Part shown: piece by piece, positions 10,064 through 59,895 of the stretch
Layout: the number at the start of each line of letters is the position of its first letter
Position numbering within the stretch: the stretch's first letter is position 1
Assembly: GCA_029259715.1 (NCBI GenBank)
Contig: JAJDEP010000003.1
Coordinates: 701,174-765,173, forward strand
Direction: 5' to 3'
DNA: 64,000 nt
DNA from: Planctomycetota bacterium
GTDB taxonomy: Bacteria > Planctomycetota > B15-G4
The notes under the pieces: model-generated
Database searches by the model: none
Told to the model about the DNA's origin: nothing
Seen by the model: only the letters and a program-made list of their open reading frames with translations
Position numbers and translations under genes: made by a program

Positions 10064-10114
10064 GGCGATTCCGGTGCGGACAGTGCGCGGCGCGGAGACC
10101 GGTCCCGAAGTGCC

Positions 10115-20267: not shown

Positions 20268-20428
20268 GTCATCCCCCTCGCGGCGCGCTCCCCCCGCGAT
20301 GCTCCCGTGGGCCGCGGTCGATGGCCGCGCAGTCTACCGGAAGCCTCCGGCTCCCCGGTCGCCGCGATCCCGGCTAACATGGCGGCGGAGGAGTCTCCGG
20401 CCGGGCAGCCGCAGACCACCGCACCCGG

Positions 20429-26204: not shown

Positions 26205-26338
26205 CCCTCTTCTTCATGGAATCATGAAGTGAGTGCCCGGCGGGGTCTCGTCCGTTGCAGGAATCCCCGATTCAGGCTGCGGATGCCTGCACTAGCCCGG
26301 CTCACCGCACCTCGAGCAGCCGCCCTAAAGAGTCGCCC

Positions 26339-38753: not shown

Positions 38754-38828
38754 TGGTTCCCCGGCGAGGACTCGAACCTCGAATGCCAGAACCAAAATCT
38801 GGAGTGTTGCCGATTACACCACCGGGGA
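38754..38828 (-). tRNA. tRNA-Gln (anticodon UUG)
   Basis: Manual fold of the reverse complement: acceptor TCCCCGG/CCGGGGA with the U1:A72 pair typical of tRNA-Gln, D arm GTGT-AATCGGCA-ACAC, anticodon stem CCAGA/TCTGG with loop TTTTGGT (anticodon TTG), T arm CGAGG-TTCGAGT-CCTCG, discriminator A, encoded CCA. Confidence 0.85.
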
Positions 38829-38976: not shown

Positions 38977-40449
38977 ATGATCGATCGGGGGCACGTCGGA
39001 TGGCACCACTCCCTCCCGCCGCTCCTCATCGGCCTGGCCCTCTGCGCCGCCCTTGCGTGCGGCACCCAAGCGCCGGCTGACGCGCCCGACCCGTCGACCA
39101 CCAACGCGCCCTCTGCCACGGGCGCCCTTGCCCCCGCCAACGCCCCCCGTCCCAACGTCATCGTCATCCTGGCCGACGATCTCGGCTATGGCGACGTCGG
39201 CTTCTACGGCGGCACCCGCTACCGCACCCCGGCCATCGACCGCCTCGCCGCCGAGGGCCTGCGCCTCACCGACTTCCACGTCGCCGCGCCCGTGTGCGGA
39301 CCGAGCCGTCAGGCGCTGTTGAGCGGGCGCTATCCGCACCGCGTCGGCGGCACCGCGAACAACGACGGCATCGACATCGACCCCGAGCGCATGCGCGCCG
39401 AGCTGGCCCGCTTCTTCCCGGTGTTCCTAGCCGAGGCCGGCTACGCCACCGGCGCCATGGGCAAGTGGCACGTGCCCACCGGGCCCAAGCTGTGGGTGCG
39501 CGCGCCGGACAGCCCGTCGCGGCCGACGCGCTGCGGCTTCGGGACGTTCCGCGGCTTCCTCAGCGCCATCTGCGACTACGTGACCCACGCCAACCAGCTC
39601 GGGCAACACGACTGGTGGCACGACGACGAACTCAATCGCGAAGAGGGTTACCTGACCCACCTGATCACCGGGCACGCGGTGGAGTTCATCGAGACCCACG
39701 CCGACGAGCCCTTCTTCCTCTACGTCTCGCACCTCGCGCCGCACGTGCCGCACCAGCTGCCGGGCGACGCGCCCTACTTCGTCGAGAGCGACGACGTGGC
39801 CGGCGCGAGGGTCCGCGGCGACGCCACCGACGAGCCCACCTCCCCCGAGCGCTACGGCGCCATGCTCGGCGAGCTCGACGCGTCGGTGGCGACGATCATG
39901 GAGACCGTGGCGCGCCTCGGCCTCGACGAACGCACGCTGGTCGTGTTCCTCTCCGACAACGGCGGCAGCGCGCCCGGCGACTCCGGCCCCTTCGCCGGCG
40001 GCAAGGGCGACCTGCACGAGGGCGGCCACCGGGTGCCCGCCGCGTTGCGCTGGCCGGGTCGCATCGCCGCCGGCACCCGCGACGACAGCCTCTGCTCGGC
40101 CCTCGACCTGGCTCCCACCATCCTCGAGCTCGCCGGCGCGGCGCCGCCGGGCGATCACGAACTCGACGGCCTCAGCCTGGCGCCGTTGCTGCAGGGCGAC
40201 GGCATGCCGACCGGGCGCCGCCTGTTCTGGGAGTGGGGCAACCGCTTCGGCGACGACGTCTACGTGGCAGCACGCGAAGGCTCCTGGAAGATCGTCGGCA
40301 CCCGGGCGGACCTCGCGCTCTACGACCTCGACGCCGACCCCGGCGAGTCCGACGACCTCTCCGAGCGGCACCCCGAGCGGGTCGCGCAGCTGCTGGCCGC
40401 CCACGACGAATGGAATCGGCTCCACACGCCCCCCGCCGAGTCCCGCTGA
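38977..40449 (+). CDS. arylsulfatase-family (Cys-type) sulfatase, secreted
   Basis: PNVIVILADDLGYGDVGFYGG and C-G-P-S-R (VCGPSRQALLSGRYPHRVG). Signal peptide/lipobox LALCAALACGT. Confidence 0.9.
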   Translation: MIDRGHVGWHHSLPPLLIGLALCAALACGTQAPADAPDPSTTNAPSATGALAPANAPRPNVIVILADDLGYGDVGFYGGTRYRTPAIDRLAAEGLRLTDFHVAAPVCGPSRQALLSGRYPHRVGGTANNDGIDIDPERMRAELARFFPVFLAEAGYATGAMGKWHVPTGPKLWVRAPDSPSRPTRCGFGTFRGFLSAICDYVTHANQLGQHDWWHDDELNREEGYLTHLITGHAVEFIETHADEPFFLYVSHLAPHVPHQLPGDAPYFVESDDVAGARVRGDATDEPTSPERYGAMLGELDASVATIMETVARLGLDERTLVVFLSDNGGSAPGDSGPFAGGKGDLHEGGHRVPAALRWPGRIAAGTRDDSLCSALDLAPTILELAGAAPPGDHELDGLSLAPLLQGDGMPTGRRLFWEWGNRFGDDVYVAAREGSWKIVGTRADLALYDLDADPGESDDLSERHPERVAQLLAAHDEWNRLHTPPAESR

Positions 40450-40607: not shown

Positions 40608-41138
40608 ATGGCCGCCAAAGACGACCCCAGCACCGCCAGCCTCGAGAAGGTCCGCGACATCCTGTTCGGGGAACAGGCCCGCACCGCCGACAAGCGCTTC
40701 GCCCGCATCGAACAGCGCCTGGTCAAGGAGCTCACCGACCTCCGCAAGGACGTGATCAAGCGCCTCGAATCGCTCGAGGCCTTCACGAGCAAGGAGCTCG
40801 AGTCCCTCGCGACGCAGATCGGCGAGCACCGGGCCGACACCGACGAGATGGAGAAGGAGATCGACAAGGAGCTGGCCGCCCTCGACAAGGCGCTCGAGAG
40901 CAAGACGTCGCAGCTCACGGCCCAGCACAACAAGTCGGCCAGCGAACTGCGCAACCAGATCCTGACCCAGAGCAAGTCTCTGCGCGACGAGATCACCACC
41001 CGGGCCGACGACCTCGCCGAGGAGCTCGACACGAGCGTCGCCGACCTCCAGGACGTGAAGGTCGACCGCGCTGCCCTCTCCTCCCTCTTCGCCGACCTGG
41101 CCGTGAAACTGGCCGGCAAGAAGGGCGCCAAGAAGTAA
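40608..41138 (+). CDS. hypothetical coiled-coil protein (176 aa)
   Basis: ATG in frame with ORF 39294..41138, whose upstream part is antisense junk. Charged heptad-like sequence (LEKVRDILFGEQARTADKRFARIEQRLVKELTDLRKDVIKRLESLE...) with a Lys-rich tail. Strong GC3 bias. Confidence 0.58.
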   Translation: MAAKDDPSTASLEKVRDILFGEQARTADKRFARIEQRLVKELTDLRKDVIKRLESLEAFTSKELESLATQIGEHRADTDEMEKEIDKELAALDKALESKTSQLTAQHNKSASELRNQILTQSKSLRDEITTRADDLAEELDTSVADLQDVKVDRAALSSLFADLAVKLAGKKGAKK

Positions 41139-41165: not shown

Positions 41166-43127
41166 ATGGCCGACTCCGAAACGCCACGCGACGACGCGAC
41201 ACCGGCCGAGCCCGAAGCGGGGCGCGGTGATGAGGCTCGGAGCAGCGAGGACCGCCGCGACCTCCAGGAGGTCCGGCGTCTGCTCGTGGGCGACGAGATC
41301 AAGCGCCTCGGCCAACTCGAGCAAGAGGTCGAGGACCTGGTTCCCCGCGCCGTCGACGTCGGCCGCATCCTGCCCGACGCCATCGACGCGGCCAACGCAG
41401 AGGACACCGCGCGCCTCGGCGAGTCCCTGACCCCCGCCGTCGAGGGCGCCCTCCACCGCTCGGTGCGCAAGAACCCGCGCGCCCTCGCCGACGTGCTCTT
41501 CCCCGTGCTCGGCCCGGCCATTCGCAAGGCCATCCAGACCTCGCTGGCCGGGATGATCGAGTCGTTCAACCGCACGCTCGAGAACAGCGTCTCGCCGTCG
41601 AGCCTCAAGTGGCGCCTGGAGGCGCGGCGCACCGGGCGCCCCTTCGCCGAGGTGGTGCTGCTGCACACGCTCGTCTATCGCGTCGAGCAGGTCTTCCTGA
41701 TCCACGCCGAGTCGGGGCTCGCGCTGGCCCACGCCCAGTCGCCGACGATCACCGCCGAGGACCCCGACCTCGTCTCGGCCATGCTCAAGGCCCTCGAGGA
41801 CTTCGCCTCCGATTCGTTCGGCGAGGGCGAGCGCGACCCGATCCAGCAGGTGGCCTTCGGCGACAAGGTCCTGCACGTAGCCGCGGGTCCCAAGGTCCTC
41901 GTGGCGGCCGTCGTGCGGGGCAACCCGCCGCCCGACTACAGCGTGCGCATGGCCGAGGCCGTCGAACGCGTGCACACCGACTTCGGCGACGAGCTGGAGG
42001 AGTTCAGCGGCGAGACGGCGCCCTTCGACCGGGCCGACGACGTGCTGGCGGCGCTGCTCGACGAGAAGATCGCGCGGCCCAAGAGCGCCAAACTGATCAT
42101 GGTCGTTTGGGTCGTGATCACGCTCATCGCCCTGGGCCTGCTCGCCTGGGGCGTCACGGCGTTCATCACCTGGCGCATGGACGAACGCGATCGGCGCAAC
42201 GCCCAGGAGCAGCAGGTCAAGGACCTGGGTGAGAACTTCGGCGTGCTCTCGAACCTGAGCCAGTCGATGGAGCAGGCCATCGCCGAGTTGGCGGCCAGCC
42301 AGGACGTGCGCGACCAGGCCCTCGCCGCCAAGGCCGAGCGCCGCCGCCGGCTCATCGCGGCGATGCACACGGCGCCCGGCCTGATGGTGATGGAGATCGG
42401 CGACGACGGCGACCGCCTGCTGCTCACCGGCCTGCGCGACCCCGACGGCGCCGACCCCGACCAGGTCATGCGGGATGCGGGGGTCGACCCCGCGGTGGTC
42501 GAGGCCCTGTGGCAGCCGTTCATGTCGTTCGAGCCCTCCATCGTGCTCACGCGCAGCGGGCGCGTGCTCGACCCGCCCGACGGGCTCGACCTCGCCATGC
42601 GCGGCGACGTGCTGGTGGCCTCCGGCACCGCCGATCATGCTTGGATCATTCGCGCGCGTCTGCTCGCCCCCACCATCGCCGGCGTCTCGGCCTACGAGGA
42701 CGACGGCGTGACCGACCTCGACGTCGCCGCCTTGCAGGCCGTCGCCGCACGCATGGCCGCCATGCACGTGTCGTTCCCGCCGGGTTCGCCCGAGCCCGCC
42801 ATCGACGACGACGTGCGCATGGCCCTCAGCGCCGTCATCGACGAGCTGGAGGCCACCGCCGGCCGCGCCGACCGCCTCGTACGCGTCGAGCTGCGCGGCC
42901 ACATCGAATCGCAGGAGATCGGCCACGGCGTGCTCGACCTCAAGCAGCGCCGCTGCGAGGCGGTCAAGCACGAGCTGGAACTGCTGCATGAAGGCGTGCG
43001 ACTCTTCTTCGTGGTCGTCGAGCAGCAGGACGACGTGGCCGGTGCCACGCCGCCGGCCGGACTCGATCACTTGCGCTTCGTGGACTTCGCCGTGATCGAC
43101 ACCGGCGCCGGGGGGGACGACGGATGA
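41166..43127 (+). CDS. hypothetical membrane protein (653 aa) with central TM helix and possible OmpA/MotB-like C-terminus
   Basis: Long GC3-biased ORF 27 bp after the coiled-coil gene. Central TM (LIMVVWVVITLIALGLLAWGVTAFITW). C-terminal LDLKQRRCEAVKHEL resembles the OmpA-like LSxxRAxAV motif (weak). Stop overlaps the GTPase start (ATGA). Confidence 0.62.
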   Translation: MADSETPRDDATPAEPEAGRGDEARSSEDRRDLQEVRRLLVGDEIKRLGQLEQEVEDLVPRAVDVGRILPDAIDAANAEDTARLGESLTPAVEGALHRSVRKNPRALADVLFPVLGPAIRKAIQTSLAGMIESFNRTLENSVSPSSLKWRLEARRTGRPFAEVVLLHTLVYRVEQVFLIHAESGLALAHAQSPTITAEDPDLVSAMLKALEDFASDSFGEGERDPIQQVAFGDKVLHVAAGPKVLVAAVVRGNPPPDYSVRMAEAVERVHTDFGDELEEFSGETAPFDRADDVLAALLDEKIARPKSAKLIMVVWVVITLIALGLLAWGVTAFITWRMDERDRRNAQEQQVKDLGENFGVLSNLSQSMEQAIAELAASQDVRDQALAAKAERRRRLIAAMHTAPGLMVMEIGDDGDRLLLTGLRDPDGADPDQVMRDAGVDPAVVEALWQPFMSFEPSIVLTRSGRVLDPPDGLDLAMRGDVLVASGTADHAWIIRARLLAPTIAGVSAYEDDGVTDLDVAALQAVAARMAAMHVSFPPGSPEPAIDDDVRMALSAVIDELEATAGRADRLVRVELRGHIESQEIGHGVLDLKQRRCEAVKHELELLHEGVRLFFVVVEQQDDVAGATPPAGLDHLRFVDFAVIDTGAGGDDG

Positions 43128-43624
43128 CTGCTCGCTACAAGGTCTGCATGCTCGGCGCTTTCGCCGTGGGCAAGACCAGCCTGGTGCGCCGCTACGTGCA
43201 CAGCATCTTCAGCGACAAGTACCTCACCACGGTGGGCGTGAAGGTCGAGAAGCGCGACGTCACCGTCGGCGGAGACACTGCCTCGCTGGTGCTGTGGGAC
43301 ATCCAGGGCGAGGACGACCTCGTGTCGATCCGCGAGAGCTACATCCGCGGCGCGCATGGCGTGCTGCTGGTGGCCGACGGAACGCGCAAGGAGACCCTCG
43401 ACAAGGCCCTCGAGCTGCACGAGCGCACGCGCAAGCTGGTGGGGCCCGTGCCCGCCGTGATCCTGCTCAACAAGTCCGACCTCACCGCCGAGTGGGAACT
43501 CGACGACGACCACATCGCCTCCCTCGAGTCCGAAGGCCGGGCGATCCTGCGCACGTCCGCGCAGACCGGGGCGGGTGTCGGCGAGGCCTTCGACGCCATC
43601 GCCCGGGGCATGCACGAGGCGTGA
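43124..43624 (+). CDS. Ras-like small GTPase
   Basis: All five G motifs present: G1 GAFAVGKTS, G2 Thr in YLTTVGV, G3 WDIQGE (DxxG), G4 LNKSD (NKxD), G5 TSAQ. 166 aa. 4-bp overlap with the upstream gene. Confidence 0.85.
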   Translation: MTARYKVCMLGAFAVGKTSLVRRYVHSIFSDKYLTTVGVKVEKRDVTVGGDTASLVLWDIQGEDDLVSIRESYIRGAHGVLLVADGTRKETLDKALELHERTRKLVGPVPAVILLNKSDLTAEWELDDDHIASLESEGRAILRTSAQTGAGVGEAFDAIARGMHEA

Positions 43625-43658: not shown

Positions 43659-45179
43659 ATGAGCGCCGGCGACACGCTCCCCACGATCTTCTCCGACCGC
43701 CTCGCGCGTCAGGCCGCCGCCGAACTGCACGCGGCCTGGATGCTCGTGGGCAAGGACGGGCGCATCGTCAACGCCGGCGGCGACCTCGAGCACCACGAGA
43801 TCGAGGACGCCCGCCCGGGCGATGACGCCGCCGACGCCCTGCCCCTCGTGGTGGGCCTCGACTTCGGCGCCACCGGCGGCGAGCTGCCCTCGATGAAGCG
43901 CGGCGGCGGTGGCTTCTCCGACGTGAAGGTGTTCCCCGTCACGGACGGCGCGTGGCTGCTGCTGCTCGACAGCAGCGAACGCAGCAAGCAGCTGCGCGGC
44001 ATGCAGCAGCGGGCCCACGACCTCGAGCTCGAGATGCGCCGACGCGGCCGCGACGCGCAGGAGGCCACCGCCGCCCCCACCCTGACCCAGGTGGTGGCCG
44101 ACCTCGGCGCCGCGGTCTACTCGCTGCAACCCGACGGCCGCTTCGAGACCGTGGGCCAGGCGCCCGTCTGGCTCGACGACCTGCGGCGTCGGGCGCCCGC
44201 ACTCGGCGTGACCCCCGACGCCGCTGAGCTCACCCCTTTTCTCGAGGGCTTCCTCGACGAGGCCCGCGAGTTCTGGGCCGACGGCGGCGGCGCGGACCGG
44301 CTGCGCTCGGGCCCCTGGATCGAGACCCTGCCCGACGGCGTCGAGGCGCCCTTCGAGGCCACCGCCCTGCGGCTCGACGACGGCAGCGCCCGCCTGGTCG
44401 TGCAGCTGCTCGGCGCGAGCTTCGAGCAGAACCGCGACCTGCTCCAGGCCGCCCGCAGTACGCGCCTGCAGTTCGATGCGCTGCTCAAGGAGATCGACAA
44501 GAAGGAGCTGCTGCTCTACGCCATCGTGCACGACCTCAACGGTCCGCTCTCGTCCATCGTCGCCAGCCTGTCGCTGCTCAAGGACTCGCAACTCGATCGG
44601 GACCAGGCCAAGGACCTGATCGAACGGGGCGCGCGCCAGGCCAACAAGCAGCTCGACATGATCAAGCAGATCCTCGAGGTGTTCTCGTCGGACATTGCTT
44701 CCATGGAAGCGTTTGAATCCGAGGCCGACAAGGCCCCCGAGGCGGCGGCGTGTCTGCGCGCCGCCGTGGAGACCTACCGCCCCGCCCTGCAGGACCGCGG
44801 CCTCGTGCTGGACCTGTCCATCGAGACGGGCGGCACCGCCCCGGTGGTGGGGTCACCCGACCGACTCGAACGGGTGCTGGGGAATCTGCTCAGCAACGCA
44901 CTGCGCCACAGCCCCGCGGGCGGCACGGTGTCGGTGAGCCTGCACGACGAGGGCGAGACGCTGCGCTTCGTCGTCGAGGACGAAGGACCGGGCGTACCGC
45001 CAGCGCTGGTGGACGACCTCTTCGACCGCTTCATCCAGGGACGCCGCAGCAAGGGCCTGGCCGGGCTGGGCCTCGACTTCTGCCGCACCACGGTGAAGGC
45101 CTGGGGCGGCGAGGTGGGCTACGAGCCCCGCGAGCCGTCCGGCTCCCGCTTCTGGGTGCGGCTGCCCAAGGCCCGCTGA
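43659..45179 (+). CDS. cytoplasmic sensor histidine kinase (HisKA + HATPase_c)
   Basis: Internal ATG of ORF 43575..45179 (MSAGDTLPTIF), 35 bp after the GTPase stop. H-box LYAIVHDLNGPLSSI. N, G1, G2 boxes (LGNLLSNALRHSPAGG, EDEGPGVPPAL, GLAGLGLDFC). No TM helices in the N-terminal ~300 aa. Confidence 0.85.
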   Translation: MSAGDTLPTIFSDRLARQAAAELHAAWMLVGKDGRIVNAGGDLEHHEIEDARPGDDAADALPLVVGLDFGATGGELPSMKRGGGGFSDVKVFPVTDGAWLLLLDSSERSKQLRGMQQRAHDLELEMRRRGRDAQEATAAPTLTQVVADLGAAVYSLQPDGRFETVGQAPVWLDDLRRRAPALGVTPDAAELTPFLEGFLDEAREFWADGGGADRLRSGPWIETLPDGVEAPFEATALRLDDGSARLVVQLLGASFEQNRDLLQAARSTRLQFDALLKEIDKKELLLYAIVHDLNGPLSSIVASLSLLKDSQLDRDQAKDLIERGARQANKQLDMIKQILEVFSSDIASMEAFESEADKAPEAAACLRAAVETYRPALQDRGLVLDLSIETGGTAPVVGSPDRLERVLGNLLSNALRHSPAGGTVSVSLHDEGETLRFVVEDEGPGVPPALVDDLFDRFIQGRRSKGLAGLGLDFCRTTVKAWGGEVGYEPREPSGSRFWVRLPKAR

Positions 45180-45213
45180 CGGGCGACGCGGGAACCGACC
45201 CGGCGCAGGGGCG

Positions 45214-45281
45214 CTGCAGGCGCGGGGACTCTGCAGGCGCGGGGTTACCGCCGTCGCGGGGTTGCCGCCCTCGCGGGGACT
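45214..45281. repeat. four tandem 17-bp repeats (consensus CYGCMSBCGCGGGGNYW)
   Basis: Read directly: ctgcaggcgcggggact / ctgcaggcgcggggtta / ccgccgtcgcggggttg / ccgccctcgcggggact. Lies 35 bp after the histidine kinase stop. Confidence 0.8.
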
Positions 45282-45421
45282 CTCAAAGTGAGATCAGGGC
45301 CGCCGGCCCAGGCGTCGGGGAAGGAGGAAGGGGCAGAGGCCCCGTCGCTGCACTCCGGTTCCCGGGGGAGGAGTCCGGAGTGTTGAGCCCGCACGACCCT
45401 GATCTCGTCTTGGAGGAGACA

Positions 45422-45467
45422 GGGATGCGTCGGGACGGCGGGCAGGGGTTGCCGTCCCGGGCATCCC
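45422..45467. terminator. GC-rich stem-loop between convergent HK and mscL genes (possible bidirectional terminator)
   Basis: gggatgcgtcgggacggc / gggcaggggtt / gccgtcccgggcatccc. A ~17-bp stem with one bulge and an 11-nt loop. No U-tract on either strand. Confidence 0.35.
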
Positions 45468-45638
45468 GCACCTATTGAAGCGCCTCGGGACGAGATCTTG
45501 CATGACGGTCTCGTTACGAGCCGCGCCCGGAGATCGGGGCGCCCGCACCGCCGCGCCCGCCCTGCAGAGCTGCCACGCGGGACTGCGTCCACCCGCCGGC
45601 CGGAGACGACACGGCCGACGGGCGAACAGAGGCCGGCG

Positions 45639-46100
45639 TCAGGCGCTGGCCGGCACGTCCGAGGTGCAGAAACCGCAACGGGTCGCCGCGATCGGGATCG
45701 ACATGGCACACGCCGGGCAGTCCTTCGCCGTGGGCGCGGCCGGTGCCGCCTCTTCCTTCTTCTTCGCGCTGTTCATGCCCTTGATCAGCATGAAGATCGC
45801 GAAGGCGATGATCAGGAAGGAGATCACCGTGTTGAAGAAGGCGCCGTAGTTGACCGTGACCGCGCCGGCTTCCTTGGCGGCCGCCAGGCTCGCGTAGGGG
45901 GCCACCGCTTCCGCGCCGTCCTTGAGGACGACGAACAGGTCGGTGAAGTCGACGCCGCCGAGGGCGAGGCCGATGGGCGGCATGATCACGTCGGCGACCA
46001 TCGACTTGATGATGGTGCCGAACGCGGCGCCGATGATGATGCCGACCGCCATGTCGACGACGTTGCCCTTCATGGCGAACTCTTTGAATTCCTTCAGCAT
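45639..46100 (-). CDS. mscL: large-conductance mechanosensitive channel MscL with C-terminal Cys4 tail
   Basis: Start at internal [28 protein letters not shown]. Conserved MscL blocks ([32 protein letters not shown]). The C-terminus ends in [22 protein letters not shown] instead of the usual helical bundle. Confidence 0.9.
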
Positions 46101-46559
46101 GATTCGTTGTCCTCTGGAGCTTGGGTGAGAATGGGGATGGATGGGCCGCAGCCTGCCACTGCCACGGATTCGGTTTGGTCGATGTGCATAAAGCCCGAAG
46201 GCACAGAAGAACCCAATGCCTTCGTCGCTGGCAACCCTTGCAACCGTTTCGGCGGCAACGGGCACCGTCGAGCCGGATTCGACGAGGCCGGCATGCCCGT
46301 ACACATGCGCTCGGGCGGAGCGATCTCATCGGGCGGCGGAGCATAGGGGCGCCCTGTTTCCGGTGGGCATGACAGTCCCGTCAATGCTTCCGGCCCCGCC
46401 AATGCACCCGGCCCCGCCATCGGACTCGGCCCGGTCATGGCACCCGGCCCGGGGACGCAACACGCTCCCGAGAGCGGGGAGGTTACGATGCGCGCTGGTA
46501 CTACGATGCGCGCGGGTAGCGGAACGGCGGCCGGAGGGTCGCGGCTGGAGGACGAATCG

Positions 46560-47249
46560 ATGCGGGTGCTCATCGTGGATGACGACGCGGACTTCGCGGA
46601 GATCGTCCGTATCGGCCTCGAGCGTCACGAGATCGAGAGCGCCATCGCCCTCGAAGGCGCGGCCGCCCTCCAGGCCCTGACGGACGCTCCGGGCGGGCAC
46701 TTCGATGCGATCCTGCTCGACGTCGAGATGCCGGGCATGTCCGGCTGGGACCTGCTCTACGACCTGCGCAGCACGGGCCGGGAGATTCCCGTCATCTTCG
46801 TCACCGGCCTCGCGGCCACCGATGAGAAGGTGCGCGGCCTCGGGCTCGGCGCCGACGACTACGTGACCAAGCCCATCGAGATCGACGAGCTGCACGCGCG
46901 CATCATGGCCGTGCTCCGGCGCCGCGAGAACGTGGCCCCCCTCGAGTGGGGCACTCTGCGGCTCGACCTGATGCTGCGCCGGGTGCTGCGGGGCGCCGAC
47001 ACGGTCGAGCTGAGCCCCCGGGAATTCGACCTGCTGCTGTGTCTCGTCCGCGCCAAGGGCGAGATCATCTCCCGCGAGCACCTGCTCAGCGAGGTCTGGG
47101 GGCTGGACTTCGACCCCGGCACCAACGTCCTCGACGTGCACATCGGGCGACTGCGCAAGAAGCTCGATCGGACCGGCCCACCGCTGATCCACAACGAACG
47201 CGGCCAGGGCTATCGCATCGAAGCCCGCCAGGACAAGCCCTCGACCTGA
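46560..47249 (+). CDS. OmpR-family response regulator
   Basis: Internal ATG (MRVLIVDDDADF). Receiver Asp in ILLDVEMPGMSG. Winged-helix output (LSPREFDLLLCLVRAKGEIISREHLLSEVWG...GYRI). Confidence 0.9.
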   Translation: MRVLIVDDDADFAEIVRIGLERHEIESAIALEGAAALQALTDAPGGHFDAILLDVEMPGMSGWDLLYDLRSTGREIPVIFVTGLAATDEKVRGLGLGADDYVTKPIEIDELHARIMAVLRRRENVAPLEWGTLRLDLMLRRVLRGADTVELSPREFDLLLCLVRAKGEIISREHLLSEVWGLDFDPGTNVLDVHIGRLRKKLDRTGPPLIHNERGQGYRIEARQDKPST

Positions 47250-47263
47250 CAAGGAACTTCACC

Positions 47264-48142
47264 GTGCTGTTTTCGCTGATCACCCAGGACGCCCCGCAAG
47301 GCGCCATGGAGAATGCCGCCGACACCGTCTCCGCCTGGGTGGCGGCCGGCCAGCAGTTCGCCATCGACTACGCGCCCAGCCTCCTCGGCGCGATCCTGGT
47401 CTTCGTGTTCGGGCGCATCGTCGTGCGCATGCTCGCGAACATGCTCAAGAAGGTCATGCGCAAAGGCGACACCGACCCCATGGTCGCGAGCTTCCTCGCC
47501 AACCTGCTCTACGGCGTGGGCGTCACGGTGGTCATCATCTCGGCGCTCGGCATCCTCGGCGTCGAGACCACCTCCGCCGTGGCCGTTCTCGGCGCGGCCG
47601 GCCTGGCCATCGGCTTCGCCCTCCAGGGCTCGCTGGGCAACTTCGCCTCGGGCGTGATGATCCTGATCTTCAAGCCCTTCAAGATCGGCGACTTCGTCGA
47701 GGCCGGCGGGACCATGGGCGTGATCCAGGACATCGCCATCTTTGCCACCGTCATGAAGACCGGCGACAACAAGAAGGTGATCCTGCCCAACTCGTCCATC
47801 ACCGAGGGCACCATCACCAACTACTCGGCCCACGACACCCGCCGCATCGACCTGATCATGGGCATCAGCTACGACGACGACATGGGCAAGGCCAAGGCCC
47901 TCTTCGCCGATGTGCTGGCCAAGGACCAGGCCGTCCTCGCCGAGCCGGCCCCCACCATCGGCGTGGTCGAGCTGGCCGAGAGCAGCGTCAACTTCGTCGT
48001 GCGGCCCTGGGTCAAGACGGGCGACTACTGGCCCACCTACTACCGGCTGACGGAGGAGATCAAGCGGCGTTGCGACGCCGAAGGCATCTCGATCCCCTTC
48101 CCGCAGCGGGACGTACACCTGCACAACGCCCCGGCCGGCTAG
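47264..48142 (+). CDS. mscS: MscS-family small-conductance mechanosensitive channel
   Basis: GTG start 8 nt after AAGGA and 14 nt after the regulator stop. Conserved MscS TM3/beta-domain region (GAAGLAIGFALQGSLGNFASGVMILIFKPFKIGDFVEAGGTMGVIQDIAIFATVMKTGDNKKVILPNSSI). Confidence 0.85.
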   Translation: MLFSLITQDAPQGAMENAADTVSAWVAAGQQFAIDYAPSLLGAILVFVFGRIVVRMLANMLKKVMRKGDTDPMVASFLANLLYGVGVTVVIISALGILGVETTSAVAVLGAAGLAIGFALQGSLGNFASGVMILIFKPFKIGDFVEAGGTMGVIQDIAIFATVMKTGDNKKVILPNSSITEGTITNYSAHDTRRIDLIMGISYDDDMGKAKALFADVLAKDQAVLAEPAPTIGVVELAESSVNFVVRPWVKTGDYWPTYYRLTEEIKRRCDAEGISIPFPQRDVHLHNAPAG

Positions 48143-48207: not shown

Positions 48208-48718
48208 TTCGAGCCGCCACCGGCCGCGAATCGAGGTGGCCCACGGCCGCCCGAGGACGACCGTGGACCGGAGACTCCGTGTGCAGCGAAGTCCAGGAAT
48301 GCCTCGTCGTGAGGGCGACGTTGAGCCGCGGACTGTGCGTCGCTCGTCTCGGCTAAGCGGGGGCCAGTCTGGCTTGCGGGGCCGCGAGCGGACGTGACGG
48401 TTCCGATAGTGAAGAATCGCGCTGTGCCGATATGTGCGTCTTTATGCGTAGCCCCTTGAGTTGCCGCCTCGGATCACCGATTCACTCGCGCACAGCGCTC
48501 CGCAGAAGCATTGCGTCACTAACGGAGGCGTCAGTCGCCGCCCTTTAAAGCGACCCCTAGATTGCCCCTCGCATGGGGCACCGCTATGGTGTGGCGCCCA
48601 CGGGTGATGCAGGCGCGGTGCGCCGGAGCGAAGGGCCTTCGGGATCCATCTCTCCACTTCTCCGCGAGGGCGTCGCCGCCCCTTACTCAACCGCAGTTAA
48701 CGTCCAGGAATCCATCAA

Positions 48719-50377
48719 ATGAAAAGCTCCACCCCCATCCTGAGCATCCTCGCGGCGACCGTCCTGATGACGGTGCTCCCCGCGTGTGGTTCGCTCGGCC
48801 CCGGCAAGACCAAGCAGGTGCACAAGTCGCCTGACGTTGAAGCCGACGCCATCCACATCGAGCCGGGTGATGAAATCATCACCTACCGCGACTACGCCAA
48901 CCCGCCCGCGCCCAAGGCGCCGGCGCCCAAGGCCATGTCCGCGCCCGCGCCCGTCGCCAAGAGCTACGGCAACGGCCTGCTCGAAGCCCACCTCTACGTC
49001 CCCACGGGTTCGCGCAGCACCTCCGCGCTGCACCTGCTGAAGATCGTCCCCGCTGAAGTCAACGCCGGCGAGGCCTTCGACATCAAGTTCATCGTCACGA
49101 ACCTGTCCGACCTCTCCCTCGACAACGTGCTCATCAGTGATCCGCTGCCGACGGGCTTCAAGGTCTCCAAGACGGACCCGTCGTTCCCCGCTTCCGCCAT
49201 CAGCAAGGGTGAGTGGATGGTCGGCACGCTCGGTCCCAAGCAGCAGAAGACCATCACCATCACCGGCACTGCCGGTGCGGGCGCCGGTTCTCTGGCCTCT
49301 TGCGCCGACGTCGAGTACGACACTTCGATCTGCCTGGCCACCAACGTGGTCCAGCCGGCTCTGAAGCTGACGGCCAAGGGCCCCGCCGAGGTCAGCCTTT
49401 GCGACGACATCTGCATCGACTACATGGTCGTGAACAGCGGCACCGGTAACGCCAACAACGTCATGGTCACCGGGACCTTCCCCGCGGGCCTGACCGACAA
49501 GTCCGGGCGCACCACGTTGAACCAGAACGTGGGCACCCTGGCCGCCGGCCAGAGCAAGAACTTCTCGGTCTGCCTGAAGGGCTCCAAGACGGGCGCCTTC
49601 AGCAACTCTGCCGTGGCCAAGGCCAACGGTGGGCTGACCGCGAACTCGAACGTCGTCAACACGACCATCCGTCAGGCCAAGCTCAGCATCGCGCTCGACT
49701 GCACCCAGAACGCTTACCTGGGCCGCAATGGTCGCTTTGAGCTCACGGTCGCCAACACCGGTAACGCCACGGCAACGGGTGCCGTCGCTGAAGCTGTCGT
49801 GCCCAGCAACATGCACTTCGTGAGCGCCACCAACGGTGGTCGTCTCTCGGGCGGCAAGGTCACCTGGGCCCTCGGCAACATGGCCGCTGGCGCCAAGCAG
49901 ACCATGTCGTACACCGCTGAGGCTCGTACGGCTGGTACCGCAACCTCCACCGCGACGCTCAACGCTGGTTGCGCCGACAGTGTGTCGGCCACGTGCCAGA
50001 CGAGAATCAGCGGCATCCCGGCCCTGTTGGTCGAGGTGGTGGACGAGCGGGACCCGGTCCTCGTTGGTGAGACCGAGACCTACACGATCACGGTCACGAA
50101 CCAGGGTTCGGCCGCCGGTACGAACATCAACGTCATGTGCAACCTGCCCGATGGTCAGGCTTACGTCTCCGCCACCGGCAACACGGCGGGTTCGGCTTCC
50201 GGCCAGACGGTGAAGTTCGCTCCGGTCTCGAGCCTGGCTCCGAAGGCCACCGCCACCTGGAAGGTCGTCGTCCGCGCCACCAAGGCCGCGAACGTGCGCT
50301 TCAAGGTGACGGTCACGAGCACCGAGCTCGGTAGCCGTCCGGTCGAAGAGACCGAGGCGACCACGCTCTACGAGTAA
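48719..50377 (+). CDS. DUF11-repeat surface lipoprotein
   Basis: Lipoprotein signal (MKSSTPILSILAATVLMTVLPACGS). Several ~110-aa repeats of the DUF11 type (e.g. GEAFDIKFIVTNLSD...ITITGTA, VSLCDDICIDYMVVNSGTGNANNV, GETETYTITVTNQGSAAGTNI). GC is noticeably lower than in neighbouring genes. Confidence 0.75.
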   Translation: MKSSTPILSILAATVLMTVLPACGSLGPGKTKQVHKSPDVEADAIHIEPGDEIITYRDYANPPAPKAPAPKAMSAPAPVAKSYGNGLLEAHLYVPTGSRSTSALHLLKIVPAEVNAGEAFDIKFIVTNLSDLSLDNVLISDPLPTGFKVSKTDPSFPASAISKGEWMVGTLGPKQQKTITITGTAGAGAGSLASCADVEYDTSICLATNVVQPALKLTAKGPAEVSLCDDICIDYMVVNSGTGNANNVMVTGTFPAGLTDKSGRTTLNQNVGTLAAGQSKNFSVCLKGSKTGAFSNSAVAKANGGLTANSNVVNTTIRQAKLSIALDCTQNAYLGRNGRFELTVANTGNATATGAVAEAVVPSNMHFVSATNGGRLSGGKVTWALGNMAAGAKQTMSYTAEARTAGTATSTATLNAGCADSVSATCQTRISGIPALLVEVVDERDPVLVGETETYTITVTNQGSAAGTNINVMCNLPDGQAYVSATGNTAGSASGQTVKFAPVSSLAPKATATWKVVVRATKAANVRFKVTVTSTELGSRPVEETEATTLYE

Positions 50378-50488: not shown

Positions 50489-51751
50489 TCAGGGCCGGCT
50501 CTCGCCCCGGGCCCCGCTCTCGTCTCGAGCGAGCTGTCGACGCAGCATGTCGAGGGCGATGCTCACCGATCGTCCGCGGATCTCGTCGCGGGTGCCCTGC
50601 CAGCTCCGCACCAGCGTCTCGGTGCCGCGCGCCGAGGCCAGGGCCGTGACCACCGTGCCGACCGGCGTGTCCGGCGCGCCTCCACCGGGCCCGGCCACGC
50701 CGGTGATCGCCAGGGAGTAATCGGCTCCCGTGACCCGCCGGCCCCCCTCCGCCATCGCCCGGGCGACCTCGACGCTCACCATCCCGTGTTCCGCGATGAG
50801 CGCCTCCGGCACGCCCACCCGGGCGGTCTTGGCCGCGGCAGCGTAGGTCACCACCCCCTCGTGGAACACCTCCGAGCTCCCCGGGACCGCGGTGAGCGCC
50901 CCCGCGAGCAACCCGCCGGTGCACGACTCGACGGTGGTTACCGTGCGGCCGGCGCGGGCCAGCGCCGCGACGACCACACCGGCCAGGGTGTCGTCCCCGC
51001 TGCCGAAGACATGCTCGCCGAGGCGCCGCCGGACCTCGGCCTCCACGGCGGCCATGCGCGTGTCGTCTTCACCCCGCAGGGTGATGGTGTGCTCGGCGTG
51101 GTGCACCGTGATGCCGATGTCGCATCCGCTGTCGTCGGCCTCCATCAGGTCGGCCAGGCGCTCGCCCAGCTTCGACTCCGCCAGCCCGCAGGCGCGCACC
51201 TTGCGGTGGGCGACCCCGTCGCCCCGGCTGAAGACGTCGTCCATGAGGGCGGTCGCCATGGCCTTCATCTCGCTGGGCACGCCGGGCAGGCAGGCCACGC
51301 TGAAGCCGCCGCCCTCCCCGGTGAGGATGCCGTAGCGCAGCAGGAACCCGGGCGCCGTCCCGACCGGGTTGTCGAGGCGCCGCGCGCCCCGGGGGGCGAG
51401 GGCCTGGCGCTCGCTGCCGGCGCCCAGCTGCCGGCCGTAACGCGCCTTCAGGTCGGCCAGCACCTCCTCGTCGATGACCAGGCGGCGTCCGAGGGCGGCG
51501 GCCACCCCGTCCCGGGTGATGTCGTCGAGGGTCGGTCCGAGACCCCCGGTGACCACCAGCACGTCGACGCGGCGGCGGAAGCGTTCGACCGCATCCGCGA
51601 TGGCGGCGACGTCGTCCCGTTCCATGGCGGCGCCGACGACCCGATGGCCGCGATCGCGGATCGCCCCCGCCAGCCAGGCCGTGTTGGTGTCCACCGTGTC
51701 GCCCGTGACCAGCTCGTCCCCCACGGCGAGGATCCCGAAGCGCAGGGTCAT
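50489..51751 (-). CDS. cinA: CinA-family competence/damage-inducible protein (MocF-like N-domain + PncC-like deamidase C-domain)
   Basis: N-terminal LAVGDELVTGDTVDTNTAWLA (CinA/MoaB-like). C-terminal TVESCTGGLLAGALTAVPGSSEVFHEGVVTYA (CinA C-terminal domain). Confidence 0.85.
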   Translation of the reverse strand: MTLRFGILAVGDELVTGDTVDTNTAWLAGAIRDRGHRVVGAAMERDDVAAIADAVERFRRRVDVLVVTGGLGPTLDDITRDGVAAALGRRLVIDEEVLADLKARYGRQLGAGSERQALAPRGARRLDNPVGTAPGFLLRYGILTGEGGGFSVACLPGVPSEMKAMATALMDDVFSRGDGVAHRKVRACGLAESKLGERLADLMEADDSGCDIGITVHHAEHTITLRGEDDTRMAAVEAEVRRRLGEHVFGSGDDTLAGVVVAALARAGRTVTTVESCTGGLLAGALTAVPGSSEVFHEGVVTYAAAAKTARVGVPEALIAEHGMVSVEVARAMAEGGRRVTGADYSLAITGVAGPGGGAPDTPVGTVVTALASARGTETLVRSWQGTRDEIRGRSVSIALDMLRRQLARDESGARGESRP

Positions 51752-53418
51752 CCGTCGGACTCCCAGGGCTCGGGCACCCGCGGCAGGGGCTCCAGCATCC
51801 AGGCCGCGGCGGGCCGGTCGTCCTCGGGTGCGTCGAGGTATCCGAGGGCCTTCAGGTCGGGCCGGAACACCTCCGAGATGCGGGTCAGACGCTCGGCGTA
51901 TGCCGAGCGAGGCAACATTCGGGCCCCGGCTCGCAAGCCGTCCAGGGCCGTCTCCAGCGCCTCCCAGCCCGCCCGCACGCGGGCATCGTCGAAATCGCTG
52001 ACGGGACGCCGCTCCTGCGGGTCCTGCGCGAGGTCGAACCAGGCCACGGCGGCCACCCGCGGTGGCTTGCCCTCCACCACCTCGAGGTTGCGGATGAATT
52101 TCTCCTGCGGCGTGCGCAGCGTTTCGATCAGCACGGCATGGCTCTTGCCGTCGGGCCGCGTGCCCGTGAGCAGCAGGCTGGCGAGGGCCGGACGGTCGGG
52201 CAACGCCCCCTGCTCCACCGCCGGCCGCAGCGAGCGTCCGGACACCGTGTCGGGCACCGGAAGGTCGCAGTAGTCGAGGATCGTCGGCATCAGGTCGTCG
52301 AGGGTCACGGCGGCGTCGACCGTGCGCGCCACGCCCGCGCCGGCGAGTCCGCGCGGCGGCACCACCAGCAGGGGCACGCGCAGCACCTCGTCGAAGACCC
52401 CCCGGCGGTGGCCGCGCTGGCCGTGCTCGAAGAACTCCTCACCGTGATCCGAGGTGACGATGATGAGCGTGTCGTCGAGGCGCCCGTCCCGTTCGAGCCG
52501 GTCGAGCACCCGGCCCACCGCGGCGTCGGTCCACGCGATCTCACCGCGATAGAGGGCCTGAACATGAGCCAGGTCCCGGTCGTTGATGCGCCGCTTGGGA
52601 TTCTTGTGCTCGTCCCAGATGCGCCGGTTCTGCATGAAGTCCCGGCCGTCGATCTTGCCGCGGTAGCCGGAGTCGAAGCGGGTGTCGTAGGGCGGCGGCG
52701 GGATGAAGTCGTAGTGCGGATCGAACAGGTGGCAGAACAGGAACAGCGGCGCGGTGCGGTCGAGGCTGCCGAGCGTGCGGCCGACGAGCTCGACAACCTT
52801 GGGCGACGTCACGTCGGCGTGGCTGCTCGAGTGGCGCGTGAAGAAGGCCTGCCGCGCGGCCTCCAGGTCGCCGCCGCGCACGGCCGCCTCCATCTCCTCG
52901 TAGCGTTCCAGGCCGTCGGTCATGGCGTTGGCGTAGGTGTCGAAGCCCCGCCCGAAGCCGAAGTCGGCCGCCAGGTACCACCCGGTCCAGAAGCCCGCCG
53001 TCGACCAGCCCGCCTGCTGCAGCATCTCGGGCAGGGTCGGCACCTCGGGGTCGATGCGCAGGCCGTCGTCCTGCACACCGTGCAGGGCCGGCGGCATGCC
53101 GGTGAACATGGAGACGTGGCTAGGCAGGGTCCAGCTGCTGCCGGCGATGGCCTGGGTGAAGATGGTGCCGCGCTCGGCCAGGCGCGAGAGATGCGGCGCG
53201 ACCCGTGGGTCGAGGAAGGTGAGCGCGTCGGCCCGCACCGTGTCGAGCGAGATCAGCAGCACGTCGGGCGGTGACGCAGACGCCCCGCAGCCCGACGTGC
53301 ACAGCACCGCCCCCAGCAACGCCCCCAGCAACGACAGCGACTGCCGGCGGGTGGTCCGCCGCCGCTTCGGGGGCCGCTGCATGGGCCGCGGGCGCATCTG
53401 CATGGGCCGCGGACTCAT
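51748..53418 (-). CDS. sulfatase-fold protein lacking the CxPxR formylglycine motif, with Tat-like signal peptide
   Basis: Start at internal MSPRPMQMRPRPMQRPPKRRRTTRRQSLSLLGALLGA (residue ~380 of ORF 51748..54561, whose upstream part is the alternative frame of the neighbouring gene). LLISLDTVRADAL... and SSWTLPSHVSMFTG in place of C/SxPxR. 4-bp ATGA overlaps on both sides. Confidence 0.78.
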   Translation of the reverse strand: MSPRPMQMRPRPMQRPPKRRRTTRRQSLSLLGALLGAVLCTSGCGASASPPDVLLISLDTVRADALTFLDPRVAPHLSRLAERGTIFTQAIAGSSWTLPSHVSMFTGMPPALHGVQDDGLRIDPEVPTLPEMLQQAGWSTAGFWTGWYLAADFGFGRGFDTYANAMTDGLERYEEMEAAVRGGDLEAARQAFFTRHSSSHADVTSPKVVELVGRTLGSLDRTAPLFLFCHLFDPHYDFIPPPPYDTRFDSGYRGKIDGRDFMQNRRIWDEHKNPKRRINDRDLAHVQALYRGEIAWTDAAVGRVLDRLERDGRLDDTLIIVTSDHGEEFFEHGQRGHRRGVFDEVLRVPLLVVPPRGLAGAGVARTVDAAVTLDDLMPTILDYCDLPVPDTVSGRSLRPAVEQGALPDRPALASLLLTGTRPDGKSHAVLIETLRTPQEKFIRNLEVVEGKPPRVAAVAWFDLAQDPQERRPVSDFDDARVRAGWEALETALDGLRAGARMLPRSAYAERLTRISEVFRPDLKALGYLDAPEDDRPAAAWMLEPLPRVPEPWESDG

Positions 53419-54872
53419 CGGCCGCCGTCCCCGAGGCCGCGCTTCCACTCGGCCAGGTCGCGCCGCAGGGCCCCCACCCGCCCCGGCTGGCGCTCGGCCA
53501 GATCGCGCGACTCGGACGGGTCCTCCTCGATGTTGAACAGGTGCGCCTCGCCCGCCTCCACCAGCAGCTTCCAGGGTCCTTGGCGCACCGATTGGGACAG
53601 CACGCCATCGTTCTCGAAGTGCTCCCAGAACAGCACCCGGTCGCCCTCGGCAGCATAGGTGGCGGCGCCCGCCCCCGTGCCCGCCCCCGTGTCCGCCGCC
53701 GCATCCGCCGTCGCGAGCAGGTCGAGACCGTCGGACGGCCGCGGCGTCGGGACGCCGGCGACGGCGCGGATCGTCGGCGCCACGTCCAGGGTGCAGGCCA
53801 GGTCGTCGCGCACCGATCCGGCTTGCAGGCGCCCGGGCCAGCGCATCAGGGCCGGGACGCGGTGCCCGCCCTCCCGCAGCGCGCCCTTGCCGCCGGTGAA
53901 GGGACCGTTGTGGCCGTCGGCGGTGGCGCCGTTGTCCGACACGAAGATGACCAGCGTGTCCCGGGCCCGACCGGTGCGATCGAGGGCGTCCAGCACCGCG
54001 CCCACGCCATCGTCGAGCGCCGTCAGGAGCTCGGCGTACTTGGCAGCAGGCGTCGGCCCGCCGGGCCACTCGTACTTCTCGCCCCGGGTGAACACGGTGG
54101 CGTCGTCCGGCCCCTGGTGCGGTCGATGCGGCGCCGCATGGGACACCACCAGGAAGAAGGGCTCGTCGGCCCGGGCCTCGAGGAACGCCACCGCGTGCTC
54201 GGTGATCAGGTGCGTGGCGTAGCCCTCCTCGTCGACGCGGTTCTCGTCGGCCCACCAGTCGGGGATGCCGCGCTGATTCACGTGGCTGCGGTAGTCGATG
54301 CTGCCCGACAGGTAGCCGCGAAAGCTGTCGAAGCCCCGCCGCGTGGGGATCAGCTCGGACTTGGGCGGGCCCAGGTGCCACTTCCCGACGAGCCCGGTGG
54401 CGTAGCCCGCGTCGGCGAGGTGCGCCGGGAGGATCGACCCGAGCTCGAACTCGTAGGCCGCCGCCGCCTCGTCGGACATGTGGCTCCAGTCGTTGGCGAT
54501 GAAGTTGCCGGCCCGCTGGGGATAGCGCCCGGTCATGAGCACCAGACGCGTGGGCGCGCACACCGGTGAGTTGCTGTGGAAGTCGGTGAAGCGCACGCCT
54601 TCCCGGGCCAGCCGGTCGATGTGCGGCGTCGGGTGGGCCTCGGGGCGGTAGCAGCTCACGTCGCCCCAGCCCAGGTCGTCGGCCACGATGAGCACCACGC
54701 TGGGGCGGGCGTCCGCCTCACCCGCCGTGCCGGTCTCGCCGGTCTCGCCCGATTGAGCCCCATCGACCGGGCCCGCCCGATCAGCCGGGTCCGCCGGCCC
54801 ACAGGCTCCGCCCAGAACGACCAGCAGCAGCCAGGCGCCGAGCAACGAGGGACTGTAGGGATCGCGAGCCAT
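53415..54872 (-). CDS. arylsulfatase-family (Cys-type) sulfatase, secreted
   Basis: PSVVLIVADDLGWGDVSCYRP and C-A-P-T-R (VCAPTRLVLMTGRYPQRAG). Signal peptide LLGAWLLLVVLGGACG. Confidence 0.9.
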   Translation of the reverse strand: MARDPYSPSLLGAWLLLVVLGGACGPADPADRAGPVDGAQSGETGETGTAGEADARPSVVLIVADDLGWGDVSCYRPEAHPTPHIDRLAREGVRFTDFHSNSPVCAPTRLVLMTGRYPQRAGNFIANDWSHMSDEAAAAYEFELGSILPAHLADAGYATGLVGKWHLGPPKSELIPTRRGFDSFRGYLSGSIDYRSHVNQRGIPDWWADENRVDEEGYATHLITEHAVAFLEARADEPFFLVVSHAAPHRPHQGPDDATVFTRGEKYEWPGGPTPAAKYAELLTALDDGVGAVLDALDRTGRARDTLVIFVSDNGATADGHNGPFTGGKGALREGGHRVPALMRWPGRLQAGSVRDDLACTLDVAPTIRAVAGVPTPRPSDGLDLLATADAAADTGAGTGAGAATYAAEGDRVLFWEHFENDGVLSQSVRQGPWKLLVEAGEAHLFNIEEDPSESRDLAERQPGRVGALRRDLAEWKRGLGDGGR

Positions 54873-54886
54873 GGCCGGCGATCATC

Positions 54887-59890: not shown

Positions 59891-59895
59891 ACGCG

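Follow-up and report, generated by a model that had tools for sequence, protein, structure and literature searches.

A predicted Group 1 Rup small-GTPase module upstream of an OmpR-type regulator flanked by two mechanosensitive-channel genes in a planctomycete

Group 1 Rup systems were described bioinformatically by Wuichet and Søgaard-Andersen (2014, Genome Biol Evol 7:57; PMC4316618) as a coiled-coil protein, a protein of the type DUF-transmembrane (TM)-OmpA, a Gln-less Ras-like GTPase and an output protein that can be a histidine kinase or a diguanylate cyclase/phosphodiesterase. As of 2014 no member of the Rup family had been studied experimentally (PMC4316618), and our literature searches returned no later characterisation of the family. 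Here we describe a locus within 64,000 nucleotides (nt) of DNA from a Planctomycetota bacterium (lineage B15-G4; assembly GCA_029259715.1, contig JAJDEP010000003.1, positions 701,174 to 765,173 of the forward strand; G+C content ~70%), referred to below as the window, in whose numbering all coordinates are given. The genes of a predicted Group 1 Rup module with a histidine kinase as output protein are followed there by mscL, the gene of an OmpR/PhoB-type response regulator and mscS. The locus is, in our reading, rather more probably than not a Group 1 Rup module joined to this regulator, with the two channel genes having come to flank the regulator recently. The gene identities and spacings given in an initial annotation of the window were confirmed by a six-frame list of open reading frames (ORFs) and by Pfam, both of which were concordant; its interpretation of the neighbourhood as an osmotic circuit fared less well, as discussed below.

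The four module genes are tightly packed and all lie on the + strand. They encode a cytoplasmic coiled-coil protein (module gene 1, 40692–41138; weak Pfam matches to Apolipoprotein and BAR-like families), a membrane protein of 653 amino acids (aa) named p653 here (41166–43127), a Ras/Rab-like small GTPase (43124–43624; Pfam Ras, E = 4e-27) whose start overlaps the p653 stop by 4 nt, and a cytoplasmic histidine kinase (43659–45179; Pfam HisKA and HATPase_c), the start of which at the ATG at 43659 is supported because homologues align from residue 1. The kinase had initially been called an orphan, a label that has to be withdrawn, since its gene begins 34 nt past the GTPase gene and closes a conserved four-gene Rup unit. 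Motifs of the GTPase are GAFAVGKT (G1), WDIQGED (G3, with Glu in place of the catalytic Gln of Ras) and NKSD (G4), and its closest solved relatives are Rab1, Rab21 and Rab23. The kinase is soluble, having no TM-like segments, and is laid out as a Rup-type N-terminal domain (residues ~22–125), some 150 unassigned residues, HisKA (H-box VHDLNGPL) and HATPase_c. About 100 residues of its N-terminal region are conserved in 31 loci, with G41, Q116 and Q117 invariant in all 31; a word-indexed search with kinase residues 1–290 returned only the kinase itself.

An alignment of p653 with its relatives was used to scan metagenomic contigs, and 80 loci were kept. The GTPase gene stands immediately downstream of the p653 homologue and on the same strand in 59 of the 80, and near it in another arrangement in 7 more; in the remaining loci the contig mostly ends close to the gene of the p653 homologue. 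In most of the 80 loci, the gene immediately preceding that of the p653 homologue encodes a homologue of the coiled-coil protein. No stand-alone roadblock gene was found between 40.6 and 45.2 kb, and a separate GTPase-coupled MglB is thus lacking. The locus therefore has the features by which Group 1 Rup systems are recognised, namely a GTPase without the G3 Gln, a coiled-coil neighbour, a TM/OmpA-like protein, an output protein with an invariant N-terminal Gln and no separate MglB gene, and on these sequence features the kinase is assigned to a four-gene Group 1 Rup small-GTPase module. That the upstream GTPase module might feed the kinase had been suggested at the outset, and the suggestion gained weight from the module-specific N-terminal domain with its Q116/Q117, from the recurrent gene order and from the match to the published group. 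The four genes and their order are identical to those published, the kinase being the output variant present here. The published survey lists no Planctomycetes and no response regulator (PMC4316618), whereas here an OmpR-type regulator follows the kinase in five lineages; moreover, the OmpA domain of the present copy is too diverged for detection by Pfam, and our model gives the 'unknown' cytoplasmic domain a longin/roadblock-like fold and the periplasmic part BON-like domains.

The actinobacterial conservon (CvnA–D) and MglA/MglB resemble the module in that a Ras-superfamily GTPase, a roadblock-fold partner and a histidine kinase likewise belong to one unit. The present locus is nevertheless not a conservon: the conservon GTPase is of the MglA family, whereas that of the module is of the Rup family (Rab/Rup-like); MglB and CvnB are separate proteins, whereas the predicted roadblock/longin fold is here a domain of the membrane protein; no gene for a counterpart of CvnC (DUF742) is present; the conservon kinase, which bears an LPxR tail, is membrane-bound, unlike the kinase described here with its lack of any TM segment; and the conservon has no response regulator, whereas this locus does.

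Pfam gave no match, OmpA included, on this copy of p653, and comparison of its profile with PDB sequences yielded nothing meaningful; only fold comparison worked. The protein has one TM segment (residues 305–336) and belongs to a family of 2,476 homologues (E ≤ 1e-10) from Planctomycetota, Alphaproteobacteria, Cyanobacteria, Desulfobacterales and others, most of which owe their annotation as OmpA family proteins to a C-terminal PF00691 (OmpA) domain, one also containing PF04972 (BON). An AlphaFold model was built from 43 sequences (mean predicted local distance difference test score, pLDDT, 80). It begins with N-terminal helices, followed by an α-β-β-α-β-β-β-α domain (residues ~160–280) and the TM helix, after which come a long coiled coil, two small α/β domains and a C-terminal α/β domain. 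Foldseek comparison with the PDB returned matches of two groups, the first comprising Rv0899/ArfA, OsmY, DolP, BonA and the C-terminal domains of Pal/OmpA, and the second longin/roadblock proteins with regulatory roles towards small GTPases, namely AP sigma subunits, Mon1-Ccz1, Sec22b, TRAPP, Ragulator and MglB. Longin-domain matches reached target-normalised TM-scores of up to 0.6–0.73; MglB and Ragulator, matched through the roadblock fold, scored lower, as did several others (0.42–0.52).

The Foldseek output carries no residue ranges, and it is from the order of secondary-structure elements that we infer p653 to consist of a longin/roadblock domain joined via one TM helix to BON and diverged OmpA/Pal-like periplasmic domains, an assignment that is new here. 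The modelled layout suggests a sensor of the periplasm or peptidoglycan that would signal to the GTPase via a roadblock-type domain. Its predicted periplasmic part shares the layout of Rv0899/ArfA (TM, BON, OmpA-like) and contains BON folds similar to OsmY and DolP, although Rv0899/ArfA, OsmY and DolP have neither a cytoplasmic longin/roadblock domain nor a GTPase partner. The longin/roadblock assignment would tie the 'unknown' domain of the module to MglB and to the guanine nucleotide exchange factor (GEF) platforms of eukaryotes.

The OmpR/PhoB-type regulator (46560–47249, + strand; Pfam Response_reg and Trans_reg_C) has a canonical receiver (DD, D54, T82 and K104, read from the translation) and a winged-helix output domain, so that the kinase, with HisKA and HATPase_c, and the regulator, with its phospho-acceptor Asp, both have the architecture of two-component proteins. 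The leader of the regulator gene contains repeat expansions (46373–46518, + strand; repeat families D1 and D8) comprising four 18-nt tandem units (46373–46450), of which the closest relative (L168; relatives are cited by locus number) has a single copy, and an 18-nt duplication (46484–46518). The start of the regulator is uncertain because this duplication creates in-frame ATGs at 46488 and 46506, which are alternative starts. Three 17-nt tandem units also lie just past the kinase stop (45200–45283).

No further kinase or receiver gene was detectable in the 64-kb window (tblastn; Pfam on flanking genes), which bears out the earlier statement that the kinase is the only one nearby. Regulator orthologues of 60–77% identity were found by protein search and their contigs read. 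The kinase is followed by the regulator on the same strand, with the Rup module upstream, in L082/L083 (67% identity), L084/L085 (64%), L086 (65%) and L174 (66%), where 376–840 nt of non-coding DNA or a DUF481 gene occupies the gap; L175 (64%) has the DUF481–regulator stretch of L084 (DUF481 81% identical) on a contig too short to reach the kinase. Kinase and regulator thus co-occur in five lineages (the window, L082, L084, L086 and L174). As one clade has kept this adjacency despite turnover of the genes around it, the pairing is supported, not proven, and the kinase and the downstream OmpR regulator probably pair.

Several observations weigh against such pairing. The two genes are neither adjacent nor co-transcribed: here they are 1.38 kb apart with the opposed mscL gene in between, and the gaps of 376–840 nt or the DUF481 gene in the relatives likewise argue that kinase and regulator do not form one transcript. 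Furthermore, regulator orthologues of 60–63% identity lack an adjoining kinase or Rup module, their contexts being AhpC/dynamin (L169, L176), RsgA/DUF2231-PSCyt1 (L173, L178) and DUF11-receiver-LEA_2 (L171), so that this regulator family can act with a distant kinase. The true partner of the regulator might then be a kinase elsewhere in the genome, with the Rup kinase signalling to another target and the adjacency being inherited synteny only. Beside the orphan orthologues in these three other context classes, this alternative would account for those distant Rup modules with a kinase output in which no OmpR regulator follows the kinase (L087, L093, L108 and L110) or a different receiver domain does so (L117, L138 and L160). 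We regard it as unlikely, since the adjacency persists in five lineages despite changing surroundings and the window contains no other kinase.

Downstream of the regulator, its TGA (47247–47249), an AAGGA (47251–47255), eight bases and the GTG start of mscS (47264) succeed one another exactly as initially annotated, the spacer measuring 14 nt. With no terminator-like site in this gap, regulator and mscS (47264–48142, + strand) are likely co-transcribed in this genome, a prediction that therefore stands. Use of the GTG as start codon agrees with the 74%-identical homologue in L167, whose alignment begins at residue 1, an ATG at 47307 being an alternative. The encoded protein is of the E. coli MscS (YggB) type, with four Pfam MscS domains and an alignment over the whole length of E. 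coli MscS (residues 21–286 with 12–277 of 2OAU, E = 1e-68). The G+C content at third codon positions (GC3) of mscS is 0.966, like that of neighbouring genes.

The closest relative (L167/L168, from two sequencing runs, SRR14610191 and SRR14610213) also has the regulator (P0002, 77% identical) followed by mscS (74% identical), with a spacer of 160 nt. This spacer suffices for a separate mscS promoter in the relative, a point against the reading preferred here. Among the regulator orthologues, this arrangement is confined to L167/L168 and does not amount to a conserved operon: mscS is absent after the regulator in all eight lineages with regulators of 60–67% identity, the following genes being instead a 128-aa ORF and a DUF11 lipoprotein gene, a receiver protein, PhoX, DUF11 or genes on the opposite strand.

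A survey from the channel side covered the 80 nearest MscS homologues in one-genome-per-species references (many phyla; at most 59% identity over full-length matches, and 62% for a partial match in L077). A regulator directly upstream of mscS was found in none of the 80 loci, and mscL within 10 kb of mscS in only one (L043), so that the proximity of mscL and mscS in the window is indeed as unusual as had been claimed. In E. coli, mscS and mscL are unlinked and are controlled by RpoS and osmolarity. In the exceptional locus, from a Nitrospirota metagenome-assembled genome, mscL (58% identical) immediately precedes mscS and has the same orientation (L043:9476–10792). A second, independent channel–regulator operon of reverse gene order was seen in L171 (1–2173, − strand) and L172, where a 548-aa MscS-family protein is encoded 10 nt ahead of another OmpR-type regulator, which shares 42% identity with that of the window; the contig also carries the regulator orthologue. 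A second MscS-like gene is located at the contig edge of L084.

The other channel gene, mscL (45639–46103, − strand; Pfam MscL, E = 4e-43, and a weak match to the zinc-ribbon-like family UPF0547), had been described as convergent, which holds with respect to the kinase gene; towards the regulator it is divergent, the two having a common upstream region of 456 nt. The protein has two TM-like segments, and its residues 2–127 align with solved MscL (E = 2e-33). In residues 128–154 a zinc-ribbon-like Cys4 tail (CPAC...CGFC) replaces the usual C-terminal helix, so that the cytoplasmic helical bundle is missing. The tail (K-D/K-C-P-x-C ... R-C-x-x-C-T-S; 28 codons, 45639–45725) is also present in homologues from a saline-lake metagenome (L155:13746–14201) and the above Nitrospirota genome (L043:~9476–9925), and hence marks an MscL subfamily with a zinc-ribbon-like cytoplasmic end. 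In the saline-lake locus (L155 and L158, 9983–14201), a p653 homologue is encoded 1.8 kb upstream of mscL (67% identical to the window's), with two small ORFs between them and the GTPase gene on the other side and the other strand, an arrangement that may be due to chance.

Comparison with the closest relative revealed how mscL is placed. By blastn, L168:1–121 corresponds to a conserved non-coding block at 45401–45517 (+ strand; 77% identity, E = 6e-16) on the kinase side of mscL, and L168:147–818 matches 46558–47229; the two blocks are 26 nt apart in L168 versus 1,040 nt in the window. As the kinase-side block abuts the regulator in L168, the stretch of ~1 kb bearing mscL is an indel. The segment absent from the relative (45518–46366) carries mscL together with its 263-nt upstream region and is flanked by a 15-nt direct repeat, GCATGACRGTCYCGT (45500–45514 and 46367–46381; family D9, 87% identical, 867 nt apart). 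No mscL is present at this position in the closest relative, L082, L084, L086 or L174. The outgroups, whose spacers are not alignable, also lack mscL here, which would favour an insertion in the window over a loss in the relative. The association of kinase and mscL is thus never conserved. Recent transfer of mscL and mscS from a donor of different base composition was considered and rejected, since the GC3 of mscL (0.935), as that of mscS, is like that of the host genes. Taken together, these comparisons identify the channel genes as apparently recent local additions, not parts of a conserved osmotic circuit. As their presence is recent and local, no general conclusion about how such channels are regulated can be drawn from them.

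A box of 14 nt, TGACRNTCCCGTNA, is shared by the upstream regions of regulator orthologues and that of the DUF11 lipoprotein gene nearby. For its strict pattern, TGACNNTYYCGTNA, the expected number per 64 kb is 0.03, against two occurrences in the window, at 45503 and 46370. Box copy 1 (TGACGGTCTCGTTA, 45503–45516) lies in the conserved block that directly precedes the regulator gene in the closest relative, and box copy 2 (TGACAGTCCCGTCA, 46370–46383, + strand), a candidate regulator site, precedes the regulator start by 190 nt and the divergent mscL start by 267 nt; the 15-nt direct repeat contains TGACRGTCYCGTNA. L167/L168, L169 and L171 likewise have the strict pattern upstream of the regulator, and in L084/L175 it closely follows the regulator gene; equivalent boxes stand 33–206 nt upstream of regulator orthologues, including loci outside the set from which a matrix was built.

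This matrix was derived from six strict-pattern sites and scanned on held-out loci. In five of six held-out lineages (L086, L173/L178, L174, L175 and L176) the best or second-best match of the locus falls 79–174 nt upstream of the regulator. The per-locus fractions were 0.014, 0.021, 0.119, 0.174, 0.039 and 0.65 (Fisher combination, p ~ 0.002). Two weaker sites in the spacer between mscS and the DUF11 gene (48395–48533), at 48395–48408 (+ strand, TGACGGTTCCGATA) and 48520–48533 (− strand, TGACGCCTCCGTTA), are the fourth and fifth best matrix matches of the window, and 1.8% of same-size windows score as high; a comparable site (fraction 0.017) is present in the regulator–DUF11 spacer of L171. 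The simplest reading is that the box is a candidate binding site of the regulator itself, which would mediate autoregulation and control of neighbouring genes. Three features fit this less well: the box is nearly palindromic, as opposed to the direct repeats usual for the OmpR family, and another factor could bind it; copy 1 is located past the 3′ end of mscL and not at its promoter; and the held-out scan found no box upstream of the L082 regulator. A sigma-70 or ECF promoter element was set aside as an explanation of the box, given the variable distance to the start codon (33–206 nt) and a length of 14 nt that is too short for both hexamers. A scan for promoters and terminators found no sigma-70-like promoter, and its sole terminator-like site was inside mscL; no known RNA was found by Rfam between 45.0 and 48.8 kb.

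The most deeply conserved neighbour of the regulator family is the gene of a surface lipoprotein with DUF11/CLIPPER repeats (48719–50377, + strand; Pfam DUF11, E = 7e-44), which has a signal peptide with an LPAC lipobox. Orthologues of 46–48% identity are encoded beside or near the regulator in L082, L086 and L171, and a CLIPPER-domain gene is also present in L084. LEA_2 and receiver-domain proteins, orthologous among L082, L084 and L171, are likewise encoded beside the regulator or the Rup module (LEA_2 40–45% identical, at L082:1988–2908, L084:191–1051 and L171:11372–12241); no counterpart of either was found in the window. The BON/OmpA sensor, the LEA_2 proteins and the surface lipoproteins make an osmotic or envelope theme plausible, into which both channels would fit, the evidence being circumstantial.

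An OmpR-family two-component system tied to a mechanosensitive channel and to osmotic and envelope functions is also known from Corynebacterium glutamicum, where MtrA of the MtrAB system controls mscL, betP, proP and lcoP (Möker et al., 2004, as cited in PMC10117811). The likeness is at the family level: MtrB is a membrane kinase, the pair is encoded in one operon and no GTPase module is involved, unlike here, and the MtrAB–mscL link is regulatory and established by experiment, whereas that of the present locus is positional. With MtrAB (as reported in PMC10117811) and the paralogous operon of L171, two-component control of channel genes is not unprecedented.

These precedents bear on the proposal of the initial annotation that the kinase–regulator pair is a dedicated, selected osmotic circuit that exists to control mscL and mscS. 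The proposal also draws on the 14-nt coupling of regulator and mscS and the same adjacency in the closest relative, on the box within the divergent upstream region shared with mscL, on a sensor with predicted BON (OsmY-like) and OmpA-like periplasmic domains, and on the recurrence of LEA_2 genes near regulator orthologues. We consider it improbable all the same, because mscS is not beside the regulator in the eight lineages of 60–67% identity, no regulator gene directly precedes mscS at any of the 80 nearest MscS loci, mscL is missing from the homologous position in the closest relative as in the four further lineages, and both channel associations are much younger than the Rup module and this family of regulators. 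Still less credit is due to neutral shuffling, by which the channel genes would have landed in a recombination-prone stretch with promoters of their own and be independent of the regulator: the kinase–regulator interval (nothing, a 46-aa ORF, DUF481 or mscL) and the genes after the regulator (a 128-aa ORF, a receiver protein, PhoX, mscS or DUF11) do differ per lineage, the tandem-repeat expansions and the flanking direct repeat mark the region as unstable, and mscL and the relative's mscS have 263 and 160 nt, respectively, of upstream sequence of their own, but read-through into mscS across 14 nt without a terminator is hardly avoidable and the box lies inside the upstream region that mscL shares with the regulator.

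For the reading that we prefer, a Group 1 Rup module joined to the regulator with channel genes as recent neighbours, the following pathway can be proposed. The membrane protein would read the state of the envelope via its periplasmic BON and OmpA-like (peptidoglycan-binding) domains, and its cytoplasmic longin/roadblock domain would set the nucleotide state of the Rup GTPase. The GTPase would then engage the N-terminal domain of the kinase, whose invariant Gln-Gln may supply the catalytic Gln missing in the GTPase, and the kinase would phosphorylate the downstream regulator. The regulator in turn would bind the 14-nt box ahead of its own gene and ahead of the gene of the DUF11 lipoprotein. 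Starting 14 nt past the regulator stop, mscS would ride on the regulator transcript; mscL, which came on, or survives on, the ~1-kb segment in the regulator upstream region, may share a divergent control region. It is a further and more doubtful step to regard the Rup module as a sensor of envelope mechanics or turgor whose kinase–regulator output sets the levels of the channels, the DUF11 lipoprotein and LEA_2. Were this true, Group 1 Rup systems, which were experimentally uncharacterised as of 2014 (PMC4316618), would thereby gain their first physiological output. The locus is overall a lineage-specific variant assembled from known parts and a possible entry point into the Group 1 Rup system: with a regulator, a candidate box and neighbouring targets, the lineage offers a concrete route to what the widespread Rup systems sense and control.

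Elsewhere in the window, a 1,245-aa protein (22476–26213, − strand) combines N-terminal ECF-type sigma-70 regions 2 and 4 with five CarboxypepD_reg domains, a fusion that is unusually long for a sigma factor. At least five sulfatases (1156–2790, 18123–20333, 38977–40449, 51748–53274 and 53415–54881) are encoded together with a Stf0 sulfotransferase (9206–10114) and a 2-phosphosulfolactate phosphatase (59168–59998), and this sulfatase-rich content is that of the sulfated-glycan lifestyle typical of marine Planctomycetota. Along with the best named protein matches and the PSCyt1 domains encoded on related contigs, it makes membership in the Planctomycetota probable from the sequence itself. Consecutive genes at 30127–33535 (− strand) encode a MoxR-type AAA ATPase, a DUF58 protein and a SpoIIM-like membrane protein and form a common, poorly understood cluster. 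Finally, a tRNA-Gln gene (anticodon TTG; 38754–38828, − strand) has a PNPOx/DUF2470 gene on one side and, on the other, the sulfatase gene located ahead of the Rup module.

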